Positions 8,750-54,758 of a stretch of DNA of 64,000 nucleotides are shown here, one piece after another (within the stretch, counting starts at the first letter, position 1; each line of letters begins with the position of its first letter). The stretch covers positions 12,671 through 76,670 of the forward strand of contig JAHFMJ010000002.1 in NCBI GenBank assembly GCA_023269035.1, written 5' to 3'. The translations under genes and the position numbers were made by a program. The notes below the pieces were generated by a model. The model saw nothing but the letters and a program-made list of their open reading frames with translations, did not search any database and was not told where the DNA came from. Origin of the DNA: Candidatus Kaiserbacteria bacterium. GTDB taxonomy: Bacteria > Patescibacteriota > Minisyncoccia > Phycocordibacterales > Phycocordibacteraceae.

Positions 8750-9334
8750 CTTCTCCACGCGCTCCGTATACTCGCCAGTATCAGTGTTGATGCGGAGGAT
8801 GTCGCCTTCGTTGATGAAAAGGGGAGCGTTGACCGTCGCGCCGCCCTCAAGGGTGACGAGCTTGTTGCCGCCCTGGGCTGTGTTGCCTTTGACGGAGGGT
8901 GGCGCCTCAATGACCTTGAAATCCATCTTGATAGGTAGATCGACGCCGATGATCTCCTCGTTCCAAACCATGAGTTCGACGATGAGATCGGGCTTCAGGT
9001 ACTTCACTTTTTCACCAACCACCTCCTCTTGTATCGAAAAGCGGTCTTTCGGATTCTTCGGGTCGGCGAACCACGCTTCGCCGCGGTTGCGGTAGATGAA
9101 CTTTACCTCGCGCTCCTCGACGTCCGCCTCCTGCACCGTTTCGTTCTGGTGGAAGGAGACTTCGACGACCTTGCCGGTCTTGAGGTTGCGCATCTTGGTC
9201 TGATTGACCGGCTTCCTCTGTTGCATGCGGAAGACGTGCGAGGAGAGGACCTCGAACGGCTGGTCGTCGTAGACGATGAGTTTCTTAGGGACTATCTCGC
9301 TGTATGAGAGGACTGGCACAAGTGTAACCCCCAT
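8744..9334 (-). CDS. efp: elongation factor P
   Basis: Aligns along its length with EF-P (…KTGKVVEVSF…, …GEKVKYLKPDLIVELMVWNEEIIGVDLP…, …GNKLVTLEGGATVNAPLFINEGDILRINTDTGEYTERV). The loop region that carries the modified Lys is divergent. Confidence 0.8.
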   Translation of the reverse strand: MGVTLVPVLSYSEIVPKKLIVYDDQPFEVLSSHVFRMQQRKPVNQTKMRNLKTGKVVEVSFHQNETVQEADVEEREVKFIYRNRGEAWFADPKNPKDRFSIQEEVVGEKVKYLKPDLIVELMVWNEEIIGVDLPIKMDFKVIEAPPSVKGNTAQGGNKLVTLEGGATVNAPLFINEGDILRINTDTGEYTERVEKK

Positions 9335-9362
9335 AGGAGGATTGGAGTACTATACACGCTCT

Positions 9363-9986
9363 ATGCCGTATTCTCAAACGCTCTCTAGGGTTGCCCCGAT
9401 TGGGATATGGTCTAGTATAGGAGGGGTGGATGACCTCCTTTCATTGTCAGATGAGGCGCTTCTTGAGCTTTCTTTGCAGAGGCCAGGTGCATTCGAGATA
9501 CTCGTTGCGCGGTATCAGTCGCAGTTCTTGAGCCGCGCGCAGAGCGTGACGAGGAGCAGGGACACGGCCGAGGACGTGGTGCAGGACACCTTTGTCCGCA
9601 TCTACCGCTTCGCCCCGCGCTTCCGTGGGGAGGAGGGATCGTTCCGCGCATGGTCGCTGACCATCCTCATGAACGTCGCCCGCACTCACTACGCCAAGCA
9701 GGCGAGGCAACGCGGGCAGGTGGCGTCGCTCGACCCGGAGCACTACGAGTCGCTCGCCGACCTCTCGGTGCCCGACAAGGAAGGTCATGAAGGGTACGCG
9801 AAAGAGGTGATAGAGAAGGCGTTGGCGCTCGTCTCTCCCGAGGTGGCGCAGATACTGACCCTTGCGTACATCGATGACCTTCCGTACGCAGAGATCGCCG
9901 TGCGGCTCAGCATCTCCGTCCCTGCGGTCAAGACCAGGGTCCATCGGGCCAAGGCCGAGCTTCGCAAGGTAGTAGTACAAGAGTGA
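9363..9986 (+). CDS. RNA polymerase ECF-type sigma factor
   Basis: Sigma-70 region 2 (AEDVVQDTFVRIYRF…) and region 4 HTH (ILTLAYIDDLPYAEIAVRLSISVPAVKTRVHRAKAELR) are present. The start was trimmed to the first ATG after the efp overlap. Confidence 0.8.
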   Translation: MPYSQTLSRVAPIGIWSSIGGVDDLLSLSDEALLELSLQRPGAFEILVARYQSQFLSRAQSVTRSRDTAEDVVQDTFVRIYRFAPRFRGEEGSFRAWSLTILMNVARTHYAKQARQRGQVASLDPEHYESLADLSVPDKEGHEGYAKEVIEKALALVSPEVAQILTLAYIDDLPYAEIAVRLSISVPAVKTRVHRAKAELRKVVVQE

Positions 9987-11642: not shown

Positions 11643-12015
11643 AGGGTGTTGTGGTGGATAGGGTCTGCTCTGTTACAAAAGCAATTTCTTTGGTAATGGC
11701 GCGGCCGAACCGGTCACGGGCGACCACCTGGAGAGCAGTATACCCTCTTGGGTAGGCACGTCGAACCGAGAACGTCCCGTCTTCAGAGAGCGGTACCGGC
11801 GCACCGTCTATGCTCAGAAATGAGACCCGTTCCGTCGTCCCGCTTATTGCTGTCAGACCTTCGGTTGTTTGGGTCTCTTGCAGGGTCATGGATGGGCCCT
11901 CGATGTACGGAAGCGCGGCATAAAAACTGTAACCGACGACGATACATAAGGCCACGAGGCTAAGGACAAGAGCCGCACGCGCGGGGGAGAACCTGATTTC
12001 CTTATGCGGGCTCAT
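11620..12015 (-). CDS. hypothetical membrane-anchored protein
   Basis: 131 aa with an N-terminal TM helix. It is sandwiched with short overlaps between ftsK and recA on the same strand. Confidence 0.4.
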
Positions 12016-14170
12016 CGCTCGTCTCTTCTCCAGAGTTGCCTGCGCCAGCGCTCGTCAGTACGTCACGCGGTCGCGCGCCGTCAGCCGCTCCGATGATGCC
12101 TTTCTCCTCGAGGATGTCCATGAGCCGTGCGGCACGTGCGTACCCAATGCGGAGCTTGCGTTGGAGGTAGGAGGTCGACGCTTTCCCGGCCTCTTCCACT
12201 ATCTGCTTTGCCTCCGCGAACAGGTCGTCGTCCACGTCGTCGTCTTCGAGCGAAGCTGAGAAGATGGCGTTCGGCGATTCGCCCGTCGTTGCCGTCAGCG
12301 TGATCGCATCGAGCGAGACCTCGTTATTTTTCTTGATATAGCTAACGATCGACTTCACTTCATTTTCGGAGATGAACGCGGTCTGGATGCGGTGCGGCTT
12401 GCTCATGTCCGCGCTCTGGTAGAGCATATCGCCGGCACCGAGCAATTTTTCCGCTCCGGCGGCGTCGAGGATGGTGCGCGAGTCTATCTGCGAGGCCACC
12501 TGGAGCGCGAGCCGTGCAGGTATATTCGCTTTGATAGTGCCGGTGATGATGTTGACGCTCGGCCGCTGCGTGGAGAGGACAAGATGGATGCCCACGGCCC
12601 GGCTCATCTGGGCGAGCCGCACGATGCCTGCCTCGAGCTCGCGCGGGTATATCTGCATGATGTCCGCGAGCTCATCGAGTACGATGACGATGAAGGGCAT
12701 CTGATCGGGGGCGTCACCCGTACCATCCCATTTCCCGACGACGTTCTCGTGATACGACTGGATGTCCCGTACTGCCTGCGTCTCGAGGATGTTGTAGCGG
12801 CGCTCCATCTCTTTCGCTGCCCACTTCAGTGAGAGGATTGCTTTCTTCGGGTCGGTAATCACCGGGGTCAGCAGATGGGGGATAGAGTTGTACAGCGTCA
12901 GCTCAACTCGCTTCGGGTCGATCATGATGAAGCGCAATGTTGCCGGGCCGTTGCGATAGAGGAGTGAGGCTATGAGAGCATGTATGGCGACGGACTTGCC
13001 GCTGCCGGTTGCTCCAGCCACAAGAAGGTGCGGCATCTTGGCGATGTTGGCAAAGTGAGACGTTCCCGCGATGTCTTTGCCTAAGCCAACGAGGAGTGGT
13101 CGCTGGTCACCCTGGAACTTATCGTCAGCAAGGAGGGAACCTAAGCCCACAGTCGCCTTCTTGCTGTTGGGCACTTCGATGCCGACAAGCGATTTTCCCG
13201 GTATCGGCGCTTCGATGCGGACAGGTGAGGCAGCAAGCGCGAGCTCGAGGTTGTTCTGGAGCGCGAGGATCTTCTGTAGGCGAACGCCTTCAGCGGGCTT
13301 CAGCGAGTATCGCGTAACCGTCGGGCCGATGGCGACCTCATCCATCTCAACGACGATGCCGAAGTTCGCGAGCGTCCGCTTGATGAGGTTCGCGTTCGCT
13401 TTGATATCGCCGTTATCCGGCTTCCCTTTGTCGCGGTCGAGGAGCGAGAGTGGGGGAGGGTTGTAGGTACTGTCGACTGGAGCAAATGAAATCCCGGCAG
13501 TCTCTTCTTCCCGGATTGGCTCCGATTTTTTTGCCCGTACTTTTTCAGGTATTTGAGGTTTTTCTTCTTCCTCTGCGTTTTCTTCGGATGCGTCTTCCCC
13601 TTCTCCCCCACGAATGGTTAGTGGGGGAGGAACGTCAGTAGCATCTTTTTTCCCAAAAGGGAATGCCGGCAGGGTCAATTTCGGGAGCCCTAGAGGCGTG
13701 TCAAGCGCAAGAAGCGCGCCGACGATAGCGATGCCTATAAGGACGATAGAGCCGAACGTCGTCTCAAAAAGGGATACGAACGGGGTGGCGATCAACCGCC
13801 CCACCATGCCGCCCCAAGCGGCATTGGCGACAGAAAGAAGCGCGATGCCTGAGAGGAAGAGAAGAGTCGCCCCCAGGACGCGCGTACCTCCGAGGCCTGC
13901 TTGTTCGCGCTGACGGACTAACCCGATAGCAAGGAGTATAAGCGAAAGGGGGATAAGAAAATAGCCTATGCCGAATAAGCCTTCTTTGAGGAAAAGATAC
14001 AAGAATTGCCCGGCTTTTCCGCCTCCTCCGAATGAGGCAAAAAGGAACAGTGCTGCAGCAATGCCGGCGAGGATGGAATAGATGCTTCGGGCTGTTTCCT
14101 GCTTTAGATTGAGTGAAGGGTGAGGGAGGTGCAGTTTGTTCTTTTCTCGCTCCTTTTTCTTTGCCATCAA
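12002..14170 (-). CDS. ftsK: DNA translocase FtsK/SpoIIIE
   Basis: N-terminal TM domain, an acidic linker, a motor domain with Walker A (VAGATGSGKSVAIHALI), and a C-terminal gamma winged-helix (YLQRKLRIGYARAARLMDILEE). Confidence 0.9.
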   Translation of the reverse strand: MMAKKKEREKNKLHLPHPSLNLKQETARSIYSILAGIAAALFLFASFGGGGKAGQFLYLFLKEGLFGIGYFLIPLSLILLAIGLVRQREQAGLGGTRVLGATLLFLSGIALLSVANAAWGGMVGRLIATPFVSLFETTFGSIVLIGIAIVGALLALDTPLGLPKLTLPAFPFGKKDATDVPPPLTIRGGEGEDASEENAEEEEKPQIPEKVRAKKSEPIREEETAGISFAPVDSTYNPPPLSLLDRDKGKPDNGDIKANANLIKRTLANFGIVVEMDEVAIGPTVTRYSLKPAEGVRLQKILALQNNLELALAASPVRIEAPIPGKSLVGIEVPNSKKATVGLGSLLADDKFQGDQRPLLVGLGKDIAGTSHFANIAKMPHLLVAGATGSGKSVAIHALIASLLYRNGPATLRFIMIDPKRVELTLYNSIPHLLTPVITDPKKAILSLKWAAKEMERRYNILETQAVRDIQSYHENVVGKWDGTGDAPDQMPFIVIVLDELADIMQIYPRELEAGIVRLAQMSRAVGIHLVLSTQRPSVNIITGTIKANIPARLALQVASQIDSRTILDAAGAEKLLGAGDMLYQSADMSKPHRIQTAFISENEVKSIVSYIKKNNEVSLDAITLTATTGESPNAIFSASLEDDDVDDDLFAEAKQIVEEAGKASTSYLQRKLRIGYARAARLMDILEEKGIIGAADGARPRDVLTSAGAGNSGEETSDEPA

Positions 14171-14316
14171 TGGATTTTAGCACGGTGGCCAACACACCAG
14201 CATGTATAACTAGCGCAGAAGTTTGATTTGTGTCGTAGCCATTTTTTACTCTTGCTAAAGACATTCAAAGGACGTAAGCTTTGTTGTATGTCTAAAAGAC
14301 ACTATTAGTCTCTAAT

Positions 14317-15063
14317 ATGTCTTATATTGTAAAAACATCCCCAAAGGACGACTTTGATAAAAATAACAATAGTTTAGGTGCTATTCAGCAATTTCAAAGT
14401 TTCTTCTCAAACCAATACCATACATTTCTTGTCCGAAAGACTGAAAGATTGGCGTCTGCCCTTTATGTTATTACAGGTTTTATGCCAGCCGACGAACCTC
14501 TTCGGACCCGTCTAAGAACATGTGCCCTTGCACTCATTTCTCAGTCATCAAATCCCGATGAGTTGAGCCATTCAGGGCCAGGAAAATTTATTAATCATTG
14601 TGCTGAAATTGGCACCATCCTTGAAACAGCTCAATCAGGAGGTTTAGTGTCGCACATGAATGCAAAGCTCATTTGCAACGAATATGCGGCTCTGGCGAAC
14701 TTTGCACGCGATCACCACACAGAGATCGTAGAGAGGGGAAATCATATAGAGACCGCCGCTATTCCCGAGCCCCAAGGCCTTCCTGTTTCTCAAAGACATT
14801 TAAAGAAAAGTCTTTTAGAATTACAAAAAATTAAAAAGACGTCCAATTCTCAAAGTAAAGGACAACAATCTGATAGAAAAACAGCAATACTTAAATTGTT
14901 TGATAATAAGGACAGTATTTCTATAAAGGACGCAGTTGTTGAAATAGAAGGATGTAGCGAAAAAACAATCCAAAGGGACCTGCTCTCGCTAGTTCGAGAC
15001 GGTGTCCTTACGAAGAAAGGTGAAAGGAGGTGGAGTACTTACCAGAGGGCCAAGAATCTCTAG
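14317..15063 (+). CDS. hypothetical protein with C-terminal winged-helix DNA-binding domain (low-GC gene)
   Basis: 248 aa. The C-terminus (SIKDAVVEIEGCSEKTIQRDLLSLVRDGVLTKKGERRWSTY) matches the DeoR/HTH_11-type wHTH pattern. Codon usage is markedly AT-richer than the flanking genes. Confidence 0.5.
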   Translation: MSYIVKTSPKDDFDKNNNSLGAIQQFQSFFSNQYHTFLVRKTERLASALYVITGFMPADEPLRTRLRTCALALISQSSNPDELSHSGPGKFINHCAEIGTILETAQSGGLVSHMNAKLICNEYAALANFARDHHTEIVERGNHIETAAIPEPQGLPVSQRHLKKSLLELQKIKKTSNSQSKGQQSDRKTAILKLFDNKDSISIKDAVVEIEGCSEKTIQRDLLSLVRDGVLTKKGERRWSTYQRAKNL

Positions 15064-15585
15064 GCTCAGGCCTCATAAGGGTTTCCTTGCTCTTAGGCCT
15101 TATTTCAGTTATTATGCCTCTTGTGGGTAGATTGAGCCACGTATAAAGAAAGGCTCCTGAAAAGGGCCTTTTGGCATATGTTTGTCCACATGTACGGGCT
15201 TCCTTTGCTCAAGTATAGGCTGAGGAGGAACGTATAATAGGTTAACTCCCGCATTCAGGTTTCGGTTGCGCGTTGTTGTGGCGCGTCAACTCTCCCGTAC
15301 GAAAAGAACTTTGTCAGTTTCATATCCGGTTTCTTGTTCTGTATTTCTCCCGCGCTGAAGCACTTTCCCTATATATGGATGGACGTCCGCTCGAACACTC
15401 TTCTCTCTACCATCTACTCTCTTATGCGGAAACGCATAAGAGATGATGGAACTAAGTTGTGCTTCTTATCAGGTTTGCGATCCCAGCCCCGTTAAGGGCG
15501 TTGGGATACCCGTGCTTTATCCGCGGCACATTTATAAGTAAACGCGGAGAAAGCATGTCATCAATTAGTCAGTAATTATTACGCT

Positions 15586-18500
15586 ATGACATCTATTGCA
15601 CACAATTCAGTCGCGAAGCTCGCGGCGGTTGTTGTCGGATTGGCCATTGCGTTCTCGTTTGCGGTTCCTGCCCACGCGGCATTGACGGCAAGCCAGGTGC
15701 AATCAATCCTCTCCCTCTTGCAGTCGTTCGGTGCTGATCAATCAACGATCAACAACGTCAACGCCTCGCTGACGGGACAACCAACAACTCCAACGACTCC
15801 GACAACCCCGTCAGCCTGTTCGTTCACCAAGGACCTTACTCTTGGCTCGAAAGGTACTGACGTAACCTGCCTCCAGAACGCACTTATCGCGAATGGGTTC
15901 TCGATACCAGCCGGCGCAACCGGTTTCTTCGGAGCTCAGACGCAAGCTGCGGTTGCGGCATGGCAGAAATCTGCTGGCGTCAGTCCTGCAGCTGGTTACT
16001 TCGGTCCTAAGTCTCGCGCAGCGTTCGGCTCTGTCTCGACAGGCCCGACAACGCCGACGACTCCAGTCCCGACAGGAACCGGCCTCGCGGTCTCCGCTGG
16101 TGTACAGCCAGCTAACTCGCTTGCACCAGCTGGTGCAACGCGCGTTCCGTTCACTCGCTTCGTAGTTACTGCCGGTAATGACGGCGATGTCGTCCTCAAC
16201 TCGGTAGTGGTACAGCGCACCGGCCTCGGCAGCAATGCCTCGTTCGCCGGCGTCATCTTGATCGATGAAGCAAGCGGCACTCAGCTCGGCACTGCCAAGA
16301 CGTTCAACAGCAACGACCAGGCAACTATCGGCCAAAAGGTGACGATCCCTCGCGGAACGTCAAAGACCTTCTTGGTCGGCGGTAACATGGCATCGTCACT
16401 CGCAAGCTATGCGGGTGAGGCTCCGTCCATCTCGGTCGTCTCTCTCAACACCTCGGCAACGGTGACCGGTTCTCTGCCGATCTCTGGCGCCACGCACACT
16501 ACGAACAACACCCTGACCGTCGGCAGCCTCTCGATCGCTTCGTCAAATGCCTTTGCGGCAAACGCGACAACGACGAAGGAAATCGGCACCACAGGATACC
16601 GTGCAACGGGTCTCCGCCTTACCTCAAGTTCGGCTGAGGACGTCCGCATCCGCTCGATCCGCTGGAACCAGATCGGTTCTGTCACCGGATCGGACATCGC
16701 GAACGTAACGACCTACGTCAACGGTGTCGCCTACCCGGCGATCATGTCTGCTGACGGCAAGTACTACGAGTCCTCACTCGGTAGTGGCGTCGTTCTCGCT
16801 TCAGGCAACAATGCAGAGGTCTACGTTACCTACGACATCGTTGGTGGCTCTGGCCGCACCATCATCTTCCACGTAGAGAAGTCAACTGACATCTACGCGA
16901 CGGGTGAGACGTACGGTTATGGCGCTACGGTCACCGGTGGCAGCGCTGGTACGCCGTTCTTCTTCGGCTACCAGATCACTGTCTCTGGCGCAACGATAAC
17001 GACCATCCAGAAAGCAAACTCTGTTGCTGCGCAGAACATCGCGGCTAACGTCTCGAACCAGGTGCTTGGTGGTTTTGAAACCAACATCAAAGGCGAGGCT
17101 CTGACCGTTCAGTCGATGGTCTTTACTGTCGCTACCACAGGTGTTTGGACTGGGTCTCCTGAAATCACCAACATCACTCTTGTTGATGAGAATGGCACCG
17201 TGAAAGCTGGCCCCGTTGATGCCACGACTGTGGCCGGGGGAGGCCAGACGCTGACCTTCTCTGATTCAATCACCATCCCGACCGGTCTCCACACCTGGAG
17301 ACTGTTGGGCAAACTGCCTTCTGGGGCAGCCAACGGCGGCACCGTTATTGTGACAACTGTTCCGTCTACAGGCTGGGGAACACCGAAGGGTGAAACCACT
17401 GGTGACACCATCTCGCTCTCGGCAAACGGCTCGTTCGCCATGAACACGATGACCATCAAGAGTGGAGCAATGGCAGTGACCCGTGCAACCTCTCCTGCAT
17501 CACAGATTGTGGTTGCAGGAAGCACCAACCTGTTGATGGCGAACCTTCAGTTCGACGCATCGCAGTCTGGTGAGGATGTACGCTTCTCATCTGTCCCGCT
17601 CTCCCTTACCGCAGCGTCTACAACACTTGGTTCGTTAGGTCAGATAAACAACTGTCTCGTCTACGACGGTGCAACTGCCATTTCTGACTCAGCAGTCAAC
17701 CCGTCCGGTGCCTCTACGGCGACATACACCGTGACGGCAACTCTTACGAATCCGATTACCGTTACGAAAGGCACAGTAAAAACACTTGGTATCCGCTGTA
17801 ACATCTCAACCAGCGCTACCACCAACGCCGGCTTCATATGGGACCACGGAGACATTACGACCTTCTCGTTCTCAGGTCTCTCTTCTGGAACATCGCTCCA
17901 ATCTTCGCAAGTTACTGCTCCGACTGACACTGCAGTCGTTGTGACTGTTGGCGCAGGTGCGGTAACGGTAGCAACAGGCGCAGGAAGCCCGAGCTACAAG
18001 CTTGCGGCAGCCGGCTCGACTGATGTCACCTCTGGTGTCATTAAGTTAACCGCAACGAACGAGGATGTGAACTTGACCGAACTCGGTCTCCAGCTCACGA
18101 CCTACGCTTCGTCATCGATCGCTGACCTTGTCAAAGCATCGATCTACAACGGTGCTACGAAAGTCGGTGAAGCATACTTCACCACTGACAGTGGCTCCGC
18201 AGCAGCTTCTACTGCAACGTCGACACTCACGGGAGTTACCCTCACGACGGGCGCTGATGTGAACCTCACCGTCAAGCTTGACTTCTCGTCAATCGCGACA
18301 GGCGGTTCTGCAACGAGCTCCGGTCACTTCGTTGCTGTTGACTTCGTCAGCGGCAAGGGTACTGGTGTTGGCTCAGGCGGGACCTACAACCTCGGTGCGG
18401 CAAACGGCTCAACGGCTGTTGCTGGTATCCGCGTGTTCAAGTCCTTCCCGACCGTCGCTACAGGCTCTGGACTCTCGACAACCGGCCTTGCCGATGGTCG

Positions 18501-19095
18501 CCTTGGCCGCTTCACGGTCACGGCTGACTCACACGGTCCGGTCAACCTCGCGGAGTTCAACCTCCAGTTCGCAACGTCGTCGATTACACAGCTCTCTGCG
18601 GTGAACATCTACGGCTTTACGAACTCTGACTACACTGGTCCTATCAGCAACCTGACAGGCACCGGCGCAGTCAACTACCGTGGTCAGACGCTGACCGGCC
18701 CAACAAGCACGAACGCTGCTTTGTGGACCAGCTCAGCAACGAACTTCGAGTTCTCGGTTACCGACTCAACTGGCGCGTCAACGACGATCCAGGTCCCAGC
18801 CGGAACGACCTACTACTTCGAAATTCGCGGTACGGTGACTGGTGTTACGACTGGCTCAAGCGTCGTCACGACCTTGAGGGGTGATACGTATGCGCCGTTC
18901 ACTGCGAGCGGCCGCTACGCGAACCCGTTGGTCTCTTACACCAACAGCACTGCAATAGACACGGTGGGTGAAGCAGCCTTTATCTGGTCTCCGAACTCGA
19001 CCACCACAGCGGTGCTCGGTTCACAAGACTGGACAAACGCCTACAACATCCCTGGTCTCCCATCCAACGGCTTGATCTTCAACCGTGGAATCTAA
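15586..19095 (+). CDS. giant secreted cell-surface protein with N-terminal peptidoglycan-binding domain
   Basis: 1169 aa. Signal peptide (…FSFAVPAHA/ALT), PT-rich linkers (TTPTTPTTP) and a PG_binding_1-like segment (LGSKGTDVTCLQNALIANGF…AQTQAAVAAWQKSAGV), followed by about 1000 aa of T/S/G/A-rich beta-type repeats. Confidence 0.6.
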   Translation: MTSIAHNSVAKLAAVVVGLAIAFSFAVPAHAALTASQVQSILSLLQSFGADQSTINNVNASLTGQPTTPTTPTTPSACSFTKDLTLGSKGTDVTCLQNALIANGFSIPAGATGFFGAQTQAAVAAWQKSAGVSPAAGYFGPKSRAAFGSVSTGPTTPTTPVPTGTGLAVSAGVQPANSLAPAGATRVPFTRFVVTAGNDGDVVLNSVVVQRTGLGSNASFAGVILIDEASGTQLGTAKTFNSNDQATIGQKVTIPRGTSKTFLVGGNMASSLASYAGEAPSISVVSLNTSATVTGSLPISGATHTTNNTLTVGSLSIASSNAFAANATTTKEIGTTGYRATGLRLTSSSAEDVRIRSIRWNQIGSVTGSDIANVTTYVNGVAYPAIMSADGKYYESSLGSGVVLASGNNAEVYVTYDIVGGSGRTIIFHVEKSTDIYATGETYGYGATVTGGSAGTPFFFGYQITVSGATITTIQKANSVAAQNIAANVSNQVLGGFETNIKGEALTVQSMVFTVATTGVWTGSPEITNITLVDENGTVKAGPVDATTVAGGGQTLTFSDSITIPTGLHTWRLLGKLPSGAANGGTVIVTTVPSTGWGTPKGETTGDTISLSANGSFAMNTMTIKSGAMAVTRATSPASQIVVAGSTNLLMANLQFDASQSGEDVRFSSVPLSLTAASTTLGSLGQINNCLVYDGATAISDSAVNPSGASTATYTVTATLTNPITVTKGTVKTLGIRCNISTSATTNAGFIWDHGDITTFSFSGLSSGTSLQSSQVTAPTDTAVVVTVGAGAVTVATGAGSPSYKLAAAGSTDVTSGVIKLTATNEDVNLTELGLQLTTYASSSIADLVKASIYNGATKVGEAYFTTDSGSAAASTATSTLTGVTLTTGADVNLTVKLDFSSIATGGSATSSGHFVAVDFVSGKGTGVGSGGTYNLGAANGSTAVAGIRVFKSFPTVATGSGLSTTGLADGRLGRFTVTADSHGPVNLAEFNLQFATSSITQLSAVNIYGFTNSDYTGPISNLTGTGAVNYRGQTLTGPTSTNAALWTSSATNFEFSVTDSTGASTTIQVPAGTTYYFEIRGTVTGVTTGSSVVTTLRGDTYAPFTASGRYANPLVSYTNSTAIDTVGEAAFIWSPNSTTTAVLGSQDWTNAYNIPGLPSNGLIFNRGI

Positions 19096-22755: not shown

Positions 22756-22784
22756 CAAAAAAGCCCCTTTAGGGGCTTTTTTGT
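22756..22784 (+). terminator. rho-independent terminator
   Basis: aaaaagcccc-ttta-ggggcttttttg. Confidence 0.6.
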
Positions 22785-22920
22785 TGTCCACAGGATGTCC
22801 CCATATGGCCTAAAATAGGCCAGTTTGACAAGGGGGTGCCTGCGGTATACACTCTCTTTTAGGTTTATGAGTACTAACACCAAAGGCACCTAGCGGCTCC
22901 ACGGTAGTCTAGTGACTTTC

Positions 22921-22971
22921 GCGGCCGCATGAAGCGGCCTTTTTTGTTCCTCGCAAACCAGTTCGTTGACA
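22921..22971 (+). promoter_or_regulatory. terminator hairpin plus CGTTGACAAC promoter-like module upstream of 23S
   Basis: gcggccgc-atgaa-gcggcc followed by TTTTTT, then cgTTGACAac. The same hairpin-plus-CGTTGACAAC arrangement recurs upstream of the 16S at 35841-35887. Confidence 0.4.
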
Positions 22972-23024
22972 ACACATCACAAAGAGAACACCGAGCATAA
23001 TTAAGTAAACGTGAAATAACGTTT

Positions 23025-26390
<3,366 letters not shown>

Positions 26391-26443
26391 TATAATTATG
26401 CTCGGTGTTCTCGGTGTGATGTGTTGATACGTTGAGTGTTCAG

Positions 26444-35746: not shown

Positions 35747-36043
35747 GCCCTTTACGCTTGTCTCACGGTAAGCGTCGCTTTAACATCACTATGACTCACT
35801 TCATTCAGTAACCTACCGATCGAAGAGACGTCTGTGTGATGCCGAGGCAAAAGCTTCGGCTTTTTCAATCCCGTGCGCTCGTTGACAACTGAATAACGAA
35901 AGATGCAATCACAAACAAACCAGTCTAAGAAACTAATCCCGACGTAAAAAGTCGGGACCCCGACCTAGGCGTCGGGGGAGCTATTCAATTTCTTCTGTTC
36001 CGACTATCGATCTCGTGCCGCCCAATTGGAGGCATGAGATCTT

Positions 36044-53123: not shown

Positions 53124-53901
53124 TTTCGTAGCACTTTTTGTTCTGGCGCTTGCTCCGGCAAGCGCCTTTGCAAATGTTGCAATAACCGAGGTCATGTACG
53201 ACGTGCCGGGCGCGGACACCGGGCGCGAATGGATAGAAATACAAAATACGGGCTCAACTGCGGTCACTGTAAGCGGCTGGAAACTTTTTGAAGGAGGGGT
53301 CAATCATAAAATACTTGCGGTAAAAAATTCCACGCTCGCTCCGGGTGCCTATGGTGTCATCGCCGACACTCCAGAAAAATTTTCTGCAGACTGGCCTGGA
53401 TTCTCCGGCACTCTTTTTGAAAGCTCTTTTTCTCTTAAGAACACGGGCGAATCGCTTGTCGTAAGAGACGCGTCGTCGACAGACATCGCTTCAATCACCT
53501 ATGACCCCGGCCTTGGTGCCGGCGGCGATGGCAACACATTGAACTTGATCGCGGGCGCGTGGGTGTTGCGGCAAGCCTCTCCTGGGGCAAGCCCATCAGA
53601 GGCTGCCATCGCCTCTCAAGAAAAGCCGGCAAAGTCACCTGCAACCAAGACCGGTGTTTCTGGAGTAAGCAAGGTAGATGGCGCTAACGATCCTGCTTTG
53701 GGCTCGCGAGGCGCCGTCACCATTTCTGGCGGTGCAGCCGGAAGAAGCGCGGAGGCCGCTACCGTATCATTTTTCAGTAACCACAGCATCTTTCCGTATG
53801 CGCTCGGACTGTGCGCCGTTATTGGTATCGGTATCGCGGCAGCCATACGTCCTCGCAAACAAGCAAAAGGCGAGTACACTATCATAGAAGAAAAATCATG
53901 A
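53101..53901 (+). CDS. secreted lamin-tail-domain (LTD) protein with C-terminal TM anchor
   Basis: Signal peptide (FVALFVLALAPASAFA). LTD signature (VAITEVMYDVPGADTGREWIEIQNTGSTAVTVSGWKL…). C-terminal hydrophobic segment (YALGLCAVIGIGIAAAI). It overlaps the preceding gene by 23 nt. Confidence 0.6.
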   Translation: MWNRCQHSFVALFVLALAPASAFANVAITEVMYDVPGADTGREWIEIQNTGSTAVTVSGWKLFEGGVNHKILAVKNSTLAPGAYGVIADTPEKFSADWPGFSGTLFESSFSLKNTGESLVVRDASSTDIASITYDPGLGAGGDGNTLNLIAGAWVLRQASPGASPSEAAIASQEKPAKSPATKTGVSGVSKVDGANDPALGSRGAVTISGGAAGRSAEAATVSFFSNHSIFPYALGLCAVIGIGIAAAIRPRKQAKGEYTIIEEKS

Positions 53902-54758
53902 GCGATTCAAAATTGATACTCGTCACTGGCGGTGCCGGCTTTGTCGGCTCGCGCCTTTGCGCGCGACTGCAGAAGGAGGGCCACCACGTCATCTCTCTTG
54001 ATAACTATTTCACCGGCAGCCGCGATGCACGGGTCCCCGGCGTTGAGTACCGCGAAGGACACACGAAGGACATTGAGAAGCATGTCAGTGAGACGCCGGA
54101 TATCATCTATCACCTTGGCGAATACTCGCGCGTCGAACAAAGCTTCGACGACGTTGCGCTCGTATGGGACCTCAACAAAGCCGGCACCTTTGGCGTCCTC
54201 GAGTTCTGGAGGAAGCGTGCGTGCAAGCTCGTTTATGCCGGCTCTTCTACCAAGTTCGCCGACGGCGGCTTAGGCCGCGACCAGAGCCCGTACGCCTGGA
54301 CGAAGGCCAGCAATACGGAGCTGGTACGCAACTACAGCGCCTGGTTTAAACTTCCGCACGCGATAACCTATTTCTACAACGTGTATGGCCCTGGTGAGCG
54401 CTCGGGGAAGTACGGCACCGTTATTGAGATTTTCCGCCAAAAGCACTTGAAGGGAGAACCGCTTACAGTCAATGCGCCGGGCACGCAAAAACGCAATTTT
54501 ACCTATATTGAAGATATTGTCGAAGGTCTTCTTCTGGTTGGAGAGAAAGGAGAGGGCGACGACTATGGCCTCGGGGATGAGCGCGAATATTCCATACTCG
54601 AGATCGCGAAACTCTTTGGCGGAAAGATGGTCATGGGACCTGCGACTGCCGGCAACCGCATGGCCTCCGCGATAGATACCGCAAAGGCAAAAGGGCTCGG
54701 ATGGAAGGTCACCACAAGCGTCGAGGAGTATGTGAAGAAGATCGTCGCCGGTTCATGA
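53898..54758 (+). CDS. NAD-dependent epimerase/dehydratase (UDP-glucuronate decarboxylase/UXS-like)
   Basis: MSDSKLILVTGGAGFVGSRLCARL… (GxxGxxG) and SDR fold blocks are present. The start was trimmed to the ATG at 53898. Confidence 0.8.
   Translation: MSDSKLILVTGGAGFVGSRLCARLQKEGHHVISLDNYFTGSRDARVPGVEYREGHTKDIEKHVSETPDIIYHLGEYSRVEQSFDDVALVWDLNKAGTFGVLEFWRKRACKLVYAGSSTKFADGGLGRDQSPYAWTKASNTELVRNYSAWFKLPHAITYFYNVYGPGERSGKYGTVIEIFRQKHLKGEPLTVNAPGTQKRNFTYIEDIVEGLLLVGEKGEGDDYGLGDEREYSILEIAKLFGGKMVMGPATAGNRMASAIDTAKAKGLGWKVTTSVEEYVKKIVAGS

Follow-up and report, generated by a model that had tools for sequence, protein, structure and literature searches.

Predicted promoters and a conserved structured leader with a boxA-like motif upstream of a putative giant surface-protein gene in Paceibacteria

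The window analysed here is a stretch of 64,000 nucleotides (nt) from a Patescibacteria contig (JAHFMJ010000002.1, positions 12,671 to 76,670), whose nearest named homologues are from Candidatus Kaiserbacteria and Paceibacterota. It carries a regulator gene (14317-15063, + strand) and, downstream of it, the gene of a putative giant surface protein (15586-19095, + strand), separated by a gap of about 520 nt. Taken as a whole, this arrangement is best explained, with a probability of about 0.55, as a ribosomal RNA (rRNA)-style promoter followed by a Nus/boxA antitermination leader, which would serve a very highly expressed surface protein. The gap is very probably a cis-acting region combining promoters and a structured leader, and the boxA/Nus mechanism taken by itself is slightly favoured. 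Sequence and structure conservation, covariation, motif enrichment and motif identity with rRNA leaders were all observed. A preliminary description of the same DNA, made from its sequence, mentioned neither the boxA-like element shared with the rRNA leaders, nor the DnaA-box-like sites, the two promoters or the third hairpin (15511-15557).

About 160 Paceibacteria loci were fetched, in which the gap between the two genes measured 260 to 1350 nt. The preliminary description had reported a region free of open reading frames (ORFs) downstream of the regulator gene, and indeed no ORF longer than 57 amino acids (aa) lies between 15064 and 15585. The gap alone retrieved relatives at E values down to 1e-28 where the flanking proteins are about 47% identical, and an iterated nhmmer search found it in 125 loci, always starting just past the regulator stop codon. 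Clustering of 814 ORFs (25 aa or longer) taken from 109 distinct gaps revealed no conserved ORF; coherent same-frame clusters covered at most 8 near-identical loci. A small conserved peptide was rejected, as no ORF was kept in frame beyond a few near-identical loci. The search of Rfam 15 that had been proposed gave no gathering-score match in the gap, and at E ≤ 10 only chance matches to eukaryotic or viral families. The comparison with relatives, also proposed, showed a region kept in 125 loci with covarying helices, which supports a role of the gap as a regulatory region or long structured 5' leader for the surface-protein gene.

The predicted 5' leader of the giant gene (15245-15585, + strand) extends for about 340 nt from P2, the second of two promoter-like elements described below. 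It is conserved at the nucleotide level in 125 loci, and its minimum free energy (MFE) gave a z-score of -2.9. One to three variable hairpins precede a boxA-like motif in the leaders. In the window, the motif reads GAACUUUGUCAGUUUCAUAU (15306-15325, + strand; family consensus GAACUUUGACAAuuuAAUA) and is located about 60 nt past the predicted P2 start. It was the most widely kept motif of the whole gap and, in 930 kb of loci, was almost confined to it. A weight matrix built from 55 giant-gene leaders of other species scored this site best in the window (26.8 bits), with the 16S leader in second place. Upstream, in the position that boxB takes relative to boxA, is hairpin H2 (15264-15291, + strand; z -2.75), with a kept UUGUUGUG loop. 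In the alignment of 32 distinct sequences for H2 (model R2, alignment A10), 93.2% of the cells were paired, compared with 79.8% for shuffled and 18-45% for slid controls, and eight of the nine pairs changed on both sides.

The same motif was present in the leaders of the organism's own rRNA genes, of which 23S/5S and 16S are unlinked in the window. The region upstream of the 23S gene (22784-22981, + strand) comprises a terminator, TTGTCCACA at 22784-22792, a TTGACA-N17-TACACT promoter, a leader hairpin and the boxA GUUCGUUGACAAC at 22960-22973; in the 16S leader, used as a comparison locus, boxA reads GCUCGUUGACAAC (35876-35895, + strand). In 128 kb, both strands included, exact copies of the 11-mer TCGTTGACAAC numbered just two, one located 80 nt ahead of the 23S gene and the other 163 nt ahead of the 16S gene. 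These rRNA copies (GCUCGUUGACAA and GUUCGUUGACAA) agree with the Escherichia coli-derived, gamma-proteobacterial consensus GYTCTTTAANA (PMC5725501) at eight of its ten specified positions. The first 160 loci contained no rRNA genes; three longer loci were added, two of which reached the 23S gene. The 23S leaders of loci L167 and L168 carry GUUCAUUGACAACUCAUCAC, which is near-identical to the GUUCAUUGACAACUACAUAU of the giant-gene leader in locus L027, and among the other loci, giant-gene leaders have GUUCGUUGACA and GUUCAUUGACAAC. The rrn operons of E. coli have a boxB hairpin, boxA and boxC, in this order, directly downstream of P2 and a second time ahead of the 23S gene; boxA is both required and sufficient for the antitermination complex to form (PMC10250234). 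There is also precedent for boxA upstream of non-rRNA protein genes and of CRISPR arrays, and diverged copies are, by accepted practice, recognized through comparison with the rRNA leaders of the same organism (PMC5725501, PMC7665894).

Some further observations concern these elements. A boxA-like GGGAAGTTTGAGAACCATATAATT (12.4 bits) is located at 26374-26397, in the interval that separates the 23S gene end from the 5S gene. The TTGACA within the boxA motif was considered as the -35 box of a third promoter and rejected, as no -10 box is kept at 17 nt. The hexamer GUUGUG recurs in the H2 loop (15272-15279) and in an invariant UUAGUUGUGCUU stretch (15453-15460) about 140 nt downstream of boxA, as well as at the apex of the P hairpin described below in short-leader loci such as L027 (5030-5040); it may represent a repeated protein-binding site.

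The 3' domain of the leader is built of several helices. A long-range helix (15357-15465, + strand), formed by GAAGCAC (15357-15363) and GUGCUUC (15459-15465), encloses the P hairpin (15410-15449, + strand; -24.1 kcal/mol, z -9.2), which consists of an outer CCAUC/GAUGG helix and an inner stem with a GAAA loop. The preliminary description had recognized the inner stem as a 10-bp hairpin; it was found one nt away, at 15419-15442, with 11 bp and inside the outer helix. In relatives, the outer helix reads CCAUY/RAUGG and the sequence of the inner stem is entirely variable. Model R1, which joins the P hairpin and the long-range helix (25 pairs; alignment A7, 39 distinct sequences), was paired in 91.7% of the cells, compared with 70.9% for shuffled and 33-42% for slid controls; double-change cells numbered 165, against 50.6 ± 5.7. 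The two helices of the P hairpin were paired in 94.8% and 91.6% of the cells, and 16 of their 20 pairs changed on both sides. The long-range helix was paired in 83% of the cells of A7 and was present in many single-sequence MFE folds, a weaker result given its low sequence variation and some misassigned 3' partners. Both covariance models were built from narrow seeds, and were complemented by single-sequence folding. RNAalifold on MAFFT alignments of the leader modules returned nothing, or sequence-invariant pairs only, with hairpins of unequal length misaligned; an all-against-all scan for column pairs in the nhmmer alignment yielded nothing but G/U-rich artefacts.

Downstream, GGAAnUUAGUUGUGCUU forms an invariant single-stranded stretch of the leader. 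Hairpin D1 (15480-15507, + strand), preceded in many lineages by a kept UUAUCAGGUAUGCGA, corresponds to the second, imperfect hairpin of the preliminary description, and is followed by hairpin D2 (15511-15557, + strand), which has a long stem and a kept apical loop, AUUUAUAAGUAA. Together they gave a z-score of -6.3 in the window, and the same topology was predicted in each of 16 loci, whose stems differ in sequence (z -2.4 to -10.9). D1 and D2 are absent from the short-leader lineages. In several lineages that differ in the stem, D1 is capped by CGUUCGGUCGAACGAAC (for example at 5440-5460 in L015, and in L017, L100 and L105). The domain ends about 28 nt before the AUG of the giant gene, and no terminator was found between the leader and this codon.

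This architecture raises the possibility that the 3' domain is the functional core of the element, acting as a riboswitch or a protein-binding sensor of translation or mRNA stability, with boxA as an accessory. Besides the multiple helices, the single-stranded stretches are strictly kept while the proteins are only 40-50% identical; the domain stops shortly before an AUG that has no Shine-Dalgarno sequence; and GUCAU at 15552-15556 is able to base-pair with AUGAC at the start codon. A candidate binder is the neighbouring regulator, always adjacent to the leader, the N-terminal domain of which has a predicted fold resembling the nucleic-acid-binding Avd. However, no conserved expression platform was recognized, either as a terminator or as a clear sequestration of the start codon, short-leader lineages dispense with D1 and D2, and no Rfam family or known aptamer was matched. 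The most widely kept parts are moreover the promoters, the box between them and boxA, rather than the 3' domain, and we regard this explanation as unlikely. A bolder proposal, which we hold to be less likely still, is that the 300-800-nt element represents a novel class of cis-regulatory RNAs, large, structured and confined to Paceibacteria, its 3' domain being bound by the four-helix-bundle/winged-helix protein or by an envelope-related metabolite, so as to couple surface-protein synthesis to growth and replication. If true, and together with the DnaA-box-like sites common to the rRNA promoters, it would point to such coupling in organisms that lack the usual growth-rate control machinery.

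Upstream of the leader, two promoter-like elements were recognized. The putative P1 (15087-15115, + strand) consists of TTGCTC (15087-15092), a 17-nt spacer and TATTAT (15110-15115). Its boxes and their spacing are kept and its spacer is variable, with the strict pattern present in 72 out of 109 distinct gaps. The putative P2 has a -10 box TATAAT at 15233-15238 (+ strand), which would place the start at about 15245. In this lineage there is no good -35 box, and in other lineages P2 reads TTGSnn-N17-TATAAT. The TATAAT is nearly invariant, and TATAWT was found downstream in 91 of the 92 gaps that contain the box described next.

Between P1 and P2 lies the box TTGTCCACA (15182-15190, + strand), which reads TTATCCACA in most other lineages and is identical or near-identical to the canonical DnaA-box 9-mer. 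The 400 nt that follow the regulator stop codon contain TT[AG]TCCACA in 66 out of 81 loci, always on the + strand, whereas 13 copies were counted elsewhere in 640 kb, for about 10 expected. The median distance from the end of the box to the P2 -10 box was 33 nt. An inverted, weaker copy, TGTGGGTAG (15122-15130, + strand), is located at the expected P1 start, and GTG(G) follows P1 in 62 of the 72 gaps. TGTGGGTAG is complementary to 15182-15190, and the segment 15122-15190 as RNA gave a z-score of -3.35. A covarying GTGG...CCAC stem was nonetheless rejected despite this stable fold, since both arms keep their sequence, which reads better as protein sites. An extracytoplasmic function (ECF)-sigma promoter reading of GAACTT...CATAT was also discarded, because its spacing is 12 nt and not 16-17.

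TTGTCCACA has one other exact match on the window's + strand, located after a terminator and upstream of the 23S promoter. In two other species, L167 and L168, the box was found inverted, as TGTGGATAGG, together with a terminator upstream of the 23S promoter; there (19985-20060 in L167 and 19940-20015 in L168), GGAAATCCTGTGGATAGG is followed by a canonical terminator of bidirectional type. This is the same unit as that between P1 and P2 of the giant gene, and a TTGTCCACA-type box appears to link the surface-protein and 23S rRNA promoters. DnaA may act at the box as a transcription factor.

A kept canonical DnaA box with an inverted partner, in an AT-rich region, could also mark a replication origin or a locus that titrates DnaA. 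Only two boxes are present, however, and neither dnaA nor dnaN was among the neighbours examined. The box also stands at a fixed distance from a promoter and recurs upstream of the 23S promoter. At the scale of the window there is no switch in GC skew, and the outer genes on both sides are on the + strand, which argues that the gap is not an origin. This explanation is thus highly improbable.

At 15149-15172 (+ strand), where the preliminary description had placed a possible weak terminator, an A-rich tract, a GC hairpin and a T-run form a weak intrinsic terminator, bidirectional in form. The hairpin/T-run itself, GGCUCC-UGAAAA-GGGCC-UUUU (15152-15172), has five pairs and was missed by a consensus scan. 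It is far stronger in relatives, for example AAAAAGCCGATTTTTTCGGCTTTTT, with 28 of the 72 gaps passing a strict detector, and canonical in many of them.

An intrinsic-terminator-like hairpin at 40-70 nt from the kept P1 boxes in many lineages could delimit an independent non-coding RNA (ncRNA) of about 55 nt, from P1 to the T-run, and a stable, trans-acting RNA might alternatively be processed from the leader. In favour of the former, two species have a similar unit (TGTGGATAGG, about 30 nt and a terminator) ahead of the 23S promoter. On the other hand, apart from GTGG the sequence from P1 to the terminator is poorly kept, and several lineages have no terminator there, so that P1 would read into the leader. 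With no terminator between the leader and the ORF, and with the element always in cis to the same gene, independent ncRNAs appear quite improbable. Of the two options offered in the preliminary description, a regulated 5' leader or an independent ncRNA, the long structured leader has held up, and the ncRNA is weakly supported.

The giant protein (1169 aa) was characterized by a signal peptide, Pro/Thr linkers and a Pfam PG_binding_1 domain, followed by about 1000 residues, 59% of which are Thr, Ala, Gly, Ser or Val (pI 5.5). These features suggest a wall-anchored surface or S-layer-like protein, probably a major component of the envelope. Orthologues were present downstream of the gap in nearly all loci. 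The gene has no Shine-Dalgarno sequence, and a sequence of this kind precedes just 7 of the 48 window genes. A TAnnnT hexamer is located 6-10 nt before the ATG of several genes (e.g. those starting at 661, 21376 and 61629, and at 9334 and 35698 on the minus strand), which suggests that leaderless mRNAs are common. Given few Shine-Dalgarno sequences and many apparently leaderless genes, a leader of about 340 nt is exceptional in this organism.

The regulator is a protein of 248 aa, for which the preliminary description had reported a DeoR-like C-terminus and a novel N-terminal domain; both were confirmed. The AlphaFold model shows a confident helical bundle of four helices (aa 18-138), a disordered linker of variable length (aa 142-179) and a DeoR-type winged helix (aa 180-244). 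HTH_DeoR (PF08220) was matched at aa 187-233 (E 4e-5; 23.7 bits for a cut-off of 21), and by 30 out of 33 family members. The N-terminal part matched no Pfam or NCBIfam family; in NCBIfam no match was obtained for the regulator, the giant protein or the 131-aa protein (p131) encoded nearby, and a PDB sequence search with the regulator returned a single marginal winged-helix match. The predicted fold of the N-terminal domain is Avd/S23-like, a four-helix bundle, with a faint bAvd sequence match in one of the 33 members (E 0.089), and no reverse transcriptase was found in any neighbourhood examined. Relatives of the regulator numbered 176 in a scan of one genome per species, 227 in a metagenome scan and 670 (full-length) in an indexed search; an exhaustive profile search gave 3354 representative clusters at E ≤ 1e-10.

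Upstream of this gene, a promoter-like element could be read from the sequence (14252-14280, + strand), with TTGCTA (14252-14257), 17 nt and TAAGCT (14275-14280); its form, TTGCxx-N17-TAxxxT, recurs upstream of regulator orthologues. The element overlaps copies of a short motif, tAAARGACA, which within 14257-14322 are found on the + strand as AAAGACA (14257-14263), AAAGGAC(g) (14267-14273) and AAAGACA (14295-14301), and in reverse as TGTCT at 14289-14293 and 14318-14322, the latter overlapping the ATG. In 115 distinct 126-nt upstream regions of orthologues, A[AG]GACA and its complement were counted 265 times, against 15.4 ± 3.5 in shuffles, an enrichment of about 17-fold. The density was 2.14 per 100 nt at -100 to 0 of the ATG, for a background of about 0.08. 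Usually three or four copies are present between -105 and +30, mostly spaced by 9-16 nt, and 223 were forward versus 42 reverse. An nhmmer search with the ftsK-regulator intergenic region found no alignable relatives: this DNA cannot be aligned between species and is kept only as short motif copies.

In the preliminary description, the inverted repeat TGTCT-aaa-AGACA (TGTCTaaaAGACA, 14289-14301), with a further TGTCT on the ATG, had suggested autoregulation. Both elements are present, the repeat consisting of one reverse and one forward copy of the motif. The halves thus belong to an enriched motif, but the kept arrangement is one of direct, strand-biased repeats, and the TGTCY-N3-RGACA palindrome was found in just 3 of the 115 regions. 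Short inverted repeats comparable to this 5+5 palindrome arise at random in the same region of other loci. Comparison with relatives places the leader hairpins and the sequence motifs far beyond chance, which does not hold for the palindrome taken by itself. The repeats probably represent DNA operators, most simply for the regulator itself, and we lean slightly towards autoregulation.

A second peak of motif density was observed at +400 to +700, inside the regulator coding sequence (CDS), in 120 loci. In the window, this cluster of AARGAC(A) (14792-14933, + strand) comprises copies at 14792, 14858, 14908 and 14927, written as Lys-Asp codons, and 6 of the 22 window matches of the motif fall in 14257-15009. 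GAC encodes 86% of the Asp residues that follow Lys within the first 30 codons, and 79% of those beyond codon 150, versus 45% for the remaining Asp codons of these genes; no such difference was seen in the control genes ftsK, recA and the giant gene (49-64% after Lys and 50-56% otherwise). Part of the regulator CDS therefore seems constrained at the DNA level, its Lys-Asp codons being biased to AAR-GAC. Two side observations were made here: an RNA formed by AAGACAC...UAUUAG/CUAAUA...UGUCUU (14295-14324) folds over the regulator start codon (-8.8 kcal/mol, z -2.6), and two AAGGACA copies 11 nt apart (54055-54072, + strand), in the ORF 53811-54758, are a possible site pair or due to chance.

In essentially every fetched locus, the gene order was recA(-), the 131-aa gene(-), ftsK(-), regulator(+), gap and giant PG_binding_1 orthologue(+). 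In the window, ftsK (12002-14170, - strand; Pfam FtsK_alpha, FtsK_SpoIIIE and FtsK_gamma) is the first gene of the divergent ftsK-p131-recA block; its position and orientation were the same in essentially all loci. The identification of both flanking genes, ftsK and the gene of the 1169-aa PG_binding_1 surface protein, was borne out by Pfam. The wider kept neighbourhood includes S6-SSB-S18, elongation factor P (EF-P), an ECF-type sigma factor, a tetratricopeptide repeat (TPR) protein and L10-L12. The sigma factor gene (Sigma70_r2/r4_2; 9276-9986) is located about 4 kb upstream and belongs to this neighbourhood in all loci; no ECF-type promoter was recognized in the studied region. The block formed by the regulator, the gap and the giant gene is inherited vertically across the class Paceibacteria.

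A sharp drop in GC content between ftsK and the surface-protein gene had been noted, and was found again in 300-nt windows (0.36-0.47 between approximately 14050 and 15400, versus 0.55-0.62 on either side). The regulator gene has a GC content of 0.41 and a GC content at third codon positions (GC3) of 0.35, against a GC3 of 0.62-0.73 in its neighbours, as would be expected if this were a horizontally acquired islet with a foreign regulator, which the preliminary description had considered. This origin is hardly tenable: the same gene, order and orientation, and the gap, are kept in essentially all loci of the class, and the identity of the regulator protein tracks the relatedness of its neighbours. 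The outlier statistics that had been proposed as a check do single out the regulator gene in the window; yet its GC3 was below that of ftsK in 82% of 116 loci, holding at about 0.35-0.47 even where neighbours reach 0.6-0.78, with the widest difference in GC-rich genomes. The low GC content is thus characteristic of the gene family.

Elsewhere in the window, the 23S rRNA match (23043-26375) measures 3333 nt for a model of 2925 nt, with an insertion or insertions of about 400 nt, and the ORF 23285-23740 (- strand) within this gene has no Pfam match. In the literature on Parcubacteria ncRNAs, S-layers and translation signals, nothing was found on this locus.

Several points weigh against an antitermination leader of the rRNA type. 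Of the ten specified positions in the E. coli-derived consensus, the giant-gene motif of the window, GAACUUUGUCA, fits only seven, and it departs from the window's own rRNA copies at several positions. The instances of the weight matrix were picked by a regular expression fixing the YTTGWHA core, so that only the flanks are independent evidence. No boxC-like element was found in the alignments within 20 nt after boxA, where only CAUAUCC is kept; nusB and rho were not among the window ORFs examined, whole genomes being outside this scope. The rRNA leaders compared come from three species only, and covariation was counted on alignments fitted to the tested structures. As for the regulator, the strand bias of tAAARGACA is unusual for a dimeric operator, and no enrichment of the motif was seen around the promoters of the giant gene, so that adjacency alone argues for a direct link between the two genes.

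Under the rRNA-style reading that we prefer, the locus would comprise two units. From the sequence we infer the transcription starts, all protein binding, antitermination and high expression. In the first unit, the regulator would bind the tAAARGACA repeats and, most likely, repress its own promoter; it may also affect the divergent ftsK-recA block or the downstream P1. A link to the giant gene would draw on their invariant adjacency and on the intragenic site cluster, located 150-300 nt upstream of P1. In the second, the giant gene would be driven by P1 and P2, both of the sigma-70 type, and the hairpin/T-run between them would insulate this unit from read-through. The inverted DnaA-box-like pair would also lie between the promoters, with the stronger site centred near -50 to -60 of P2. 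NusB and NusE (S10) would bind boxA on the nascent RNA and yield a termination-resistant RNA polymerase. As in rrn operons, the enzyme could then read through the whole untranslated leader, despite its length and structure, and through the 3.5-kb gene beyond it. Either mRNA stability or Shine-Dalgarno-independent translation initiation would probably be set by the 3' domain of the leader.

Gene regulation in Patescibacteria is nearly uncharted, and these organisms cannot be grown alone. The locus offers several concrete elements kept across a whole class: a promoter form, TTGCxx-N17-TAxxxT; a lineage-specific boxA consensus common to rRNA leaders and a protein gene, which would widen the reach of Nus-type antitermination to include this phylum and a gene for a surface protein; an upstream element resembling a DnaA box, common to the 23S rRNA and surface-protein promoters; and a multi-helix leader RNA absent from Rfam. 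It further provides a large family of putative transcription factors (the 3354 representative clusters), with a predicted motif and sites inside their own CDS, as well as a clear case of a compositional outlier without horizontal acquisition.

Compared with known systems, the regulator resembles the DeoR family by a winged helix above the Pfam HTH_DeoR threshold, but its domain order is reversed, with the helix-turn-helix at the C terminus; the C-terminal sugar-phosphate sensor domain is lacking, a four-helix bundle is found in its place, and the predicted sites are direct repeats. The fold of its N-terminal domain is that of the Avd proteins of diversity-generating retroelements and of the S23 proteins of 23S rRNA intervening sequences, from which it differs by the absence of sequence-family membership and of a nearby reverse transcriptase, and by its fusion to a DNA-binding domain. 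As for DnaA boxes used as transcription-factor sites, most lineages carry the exact 9-mer TTATCCACA, its position ahead of a promoter being fixed, although here there is no cluster and no origin context, and position 3 is a G in this lineage. The leaders of S-layer genes (Lactobacillus slpA, Thermus slpA, Caulobacter rsaA) have strong, sometimes multiple promoters and a long structured leader thought to stabilize the mRNA. The giant gene would share with them an abundant secreted envelope protein, a long structured leader and multiple promoters, a likeness suggested by the signal peptide, PG_binding_1 and composition of its product alone; S-layer leaders are shorter, and no boxA is known from them.

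The closest parallel is the E. coli rrn control region, with its tandem P1/P2 promoters, boxB-boxA-boxC leader and rrnTAC antitermination complex. Both have two tandem promoters, a hairpin and then a boxA-like 12-mer early in a long structured leader, and the same motif in the organism's own 16S and 23S leaders. Here, however, the downstream gene codes for a protein, boxC is missing at 18-19 nt, there is no leader-trailer helix, the motif departs from GYTCTTTAANA at two to three positions, and Nus binding is putative. With the non-rRNA boxA elements of suhB, Citrobacter genes and CRISPR arrays (PMC5725501, PMC7665894), the leader shares a boxA outside rRNA operons that is recognized through the rRNA-leader motif of the same organism; it comes from a different phylum and is much longer and more structured. 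In suhB, boxA is beside the start codon and represses translation (PMC5725501, PMC7665894), whereas the putative boxA of the giant gene is located about 270 nt upstream of the AUG, a position that fits antitermination better.

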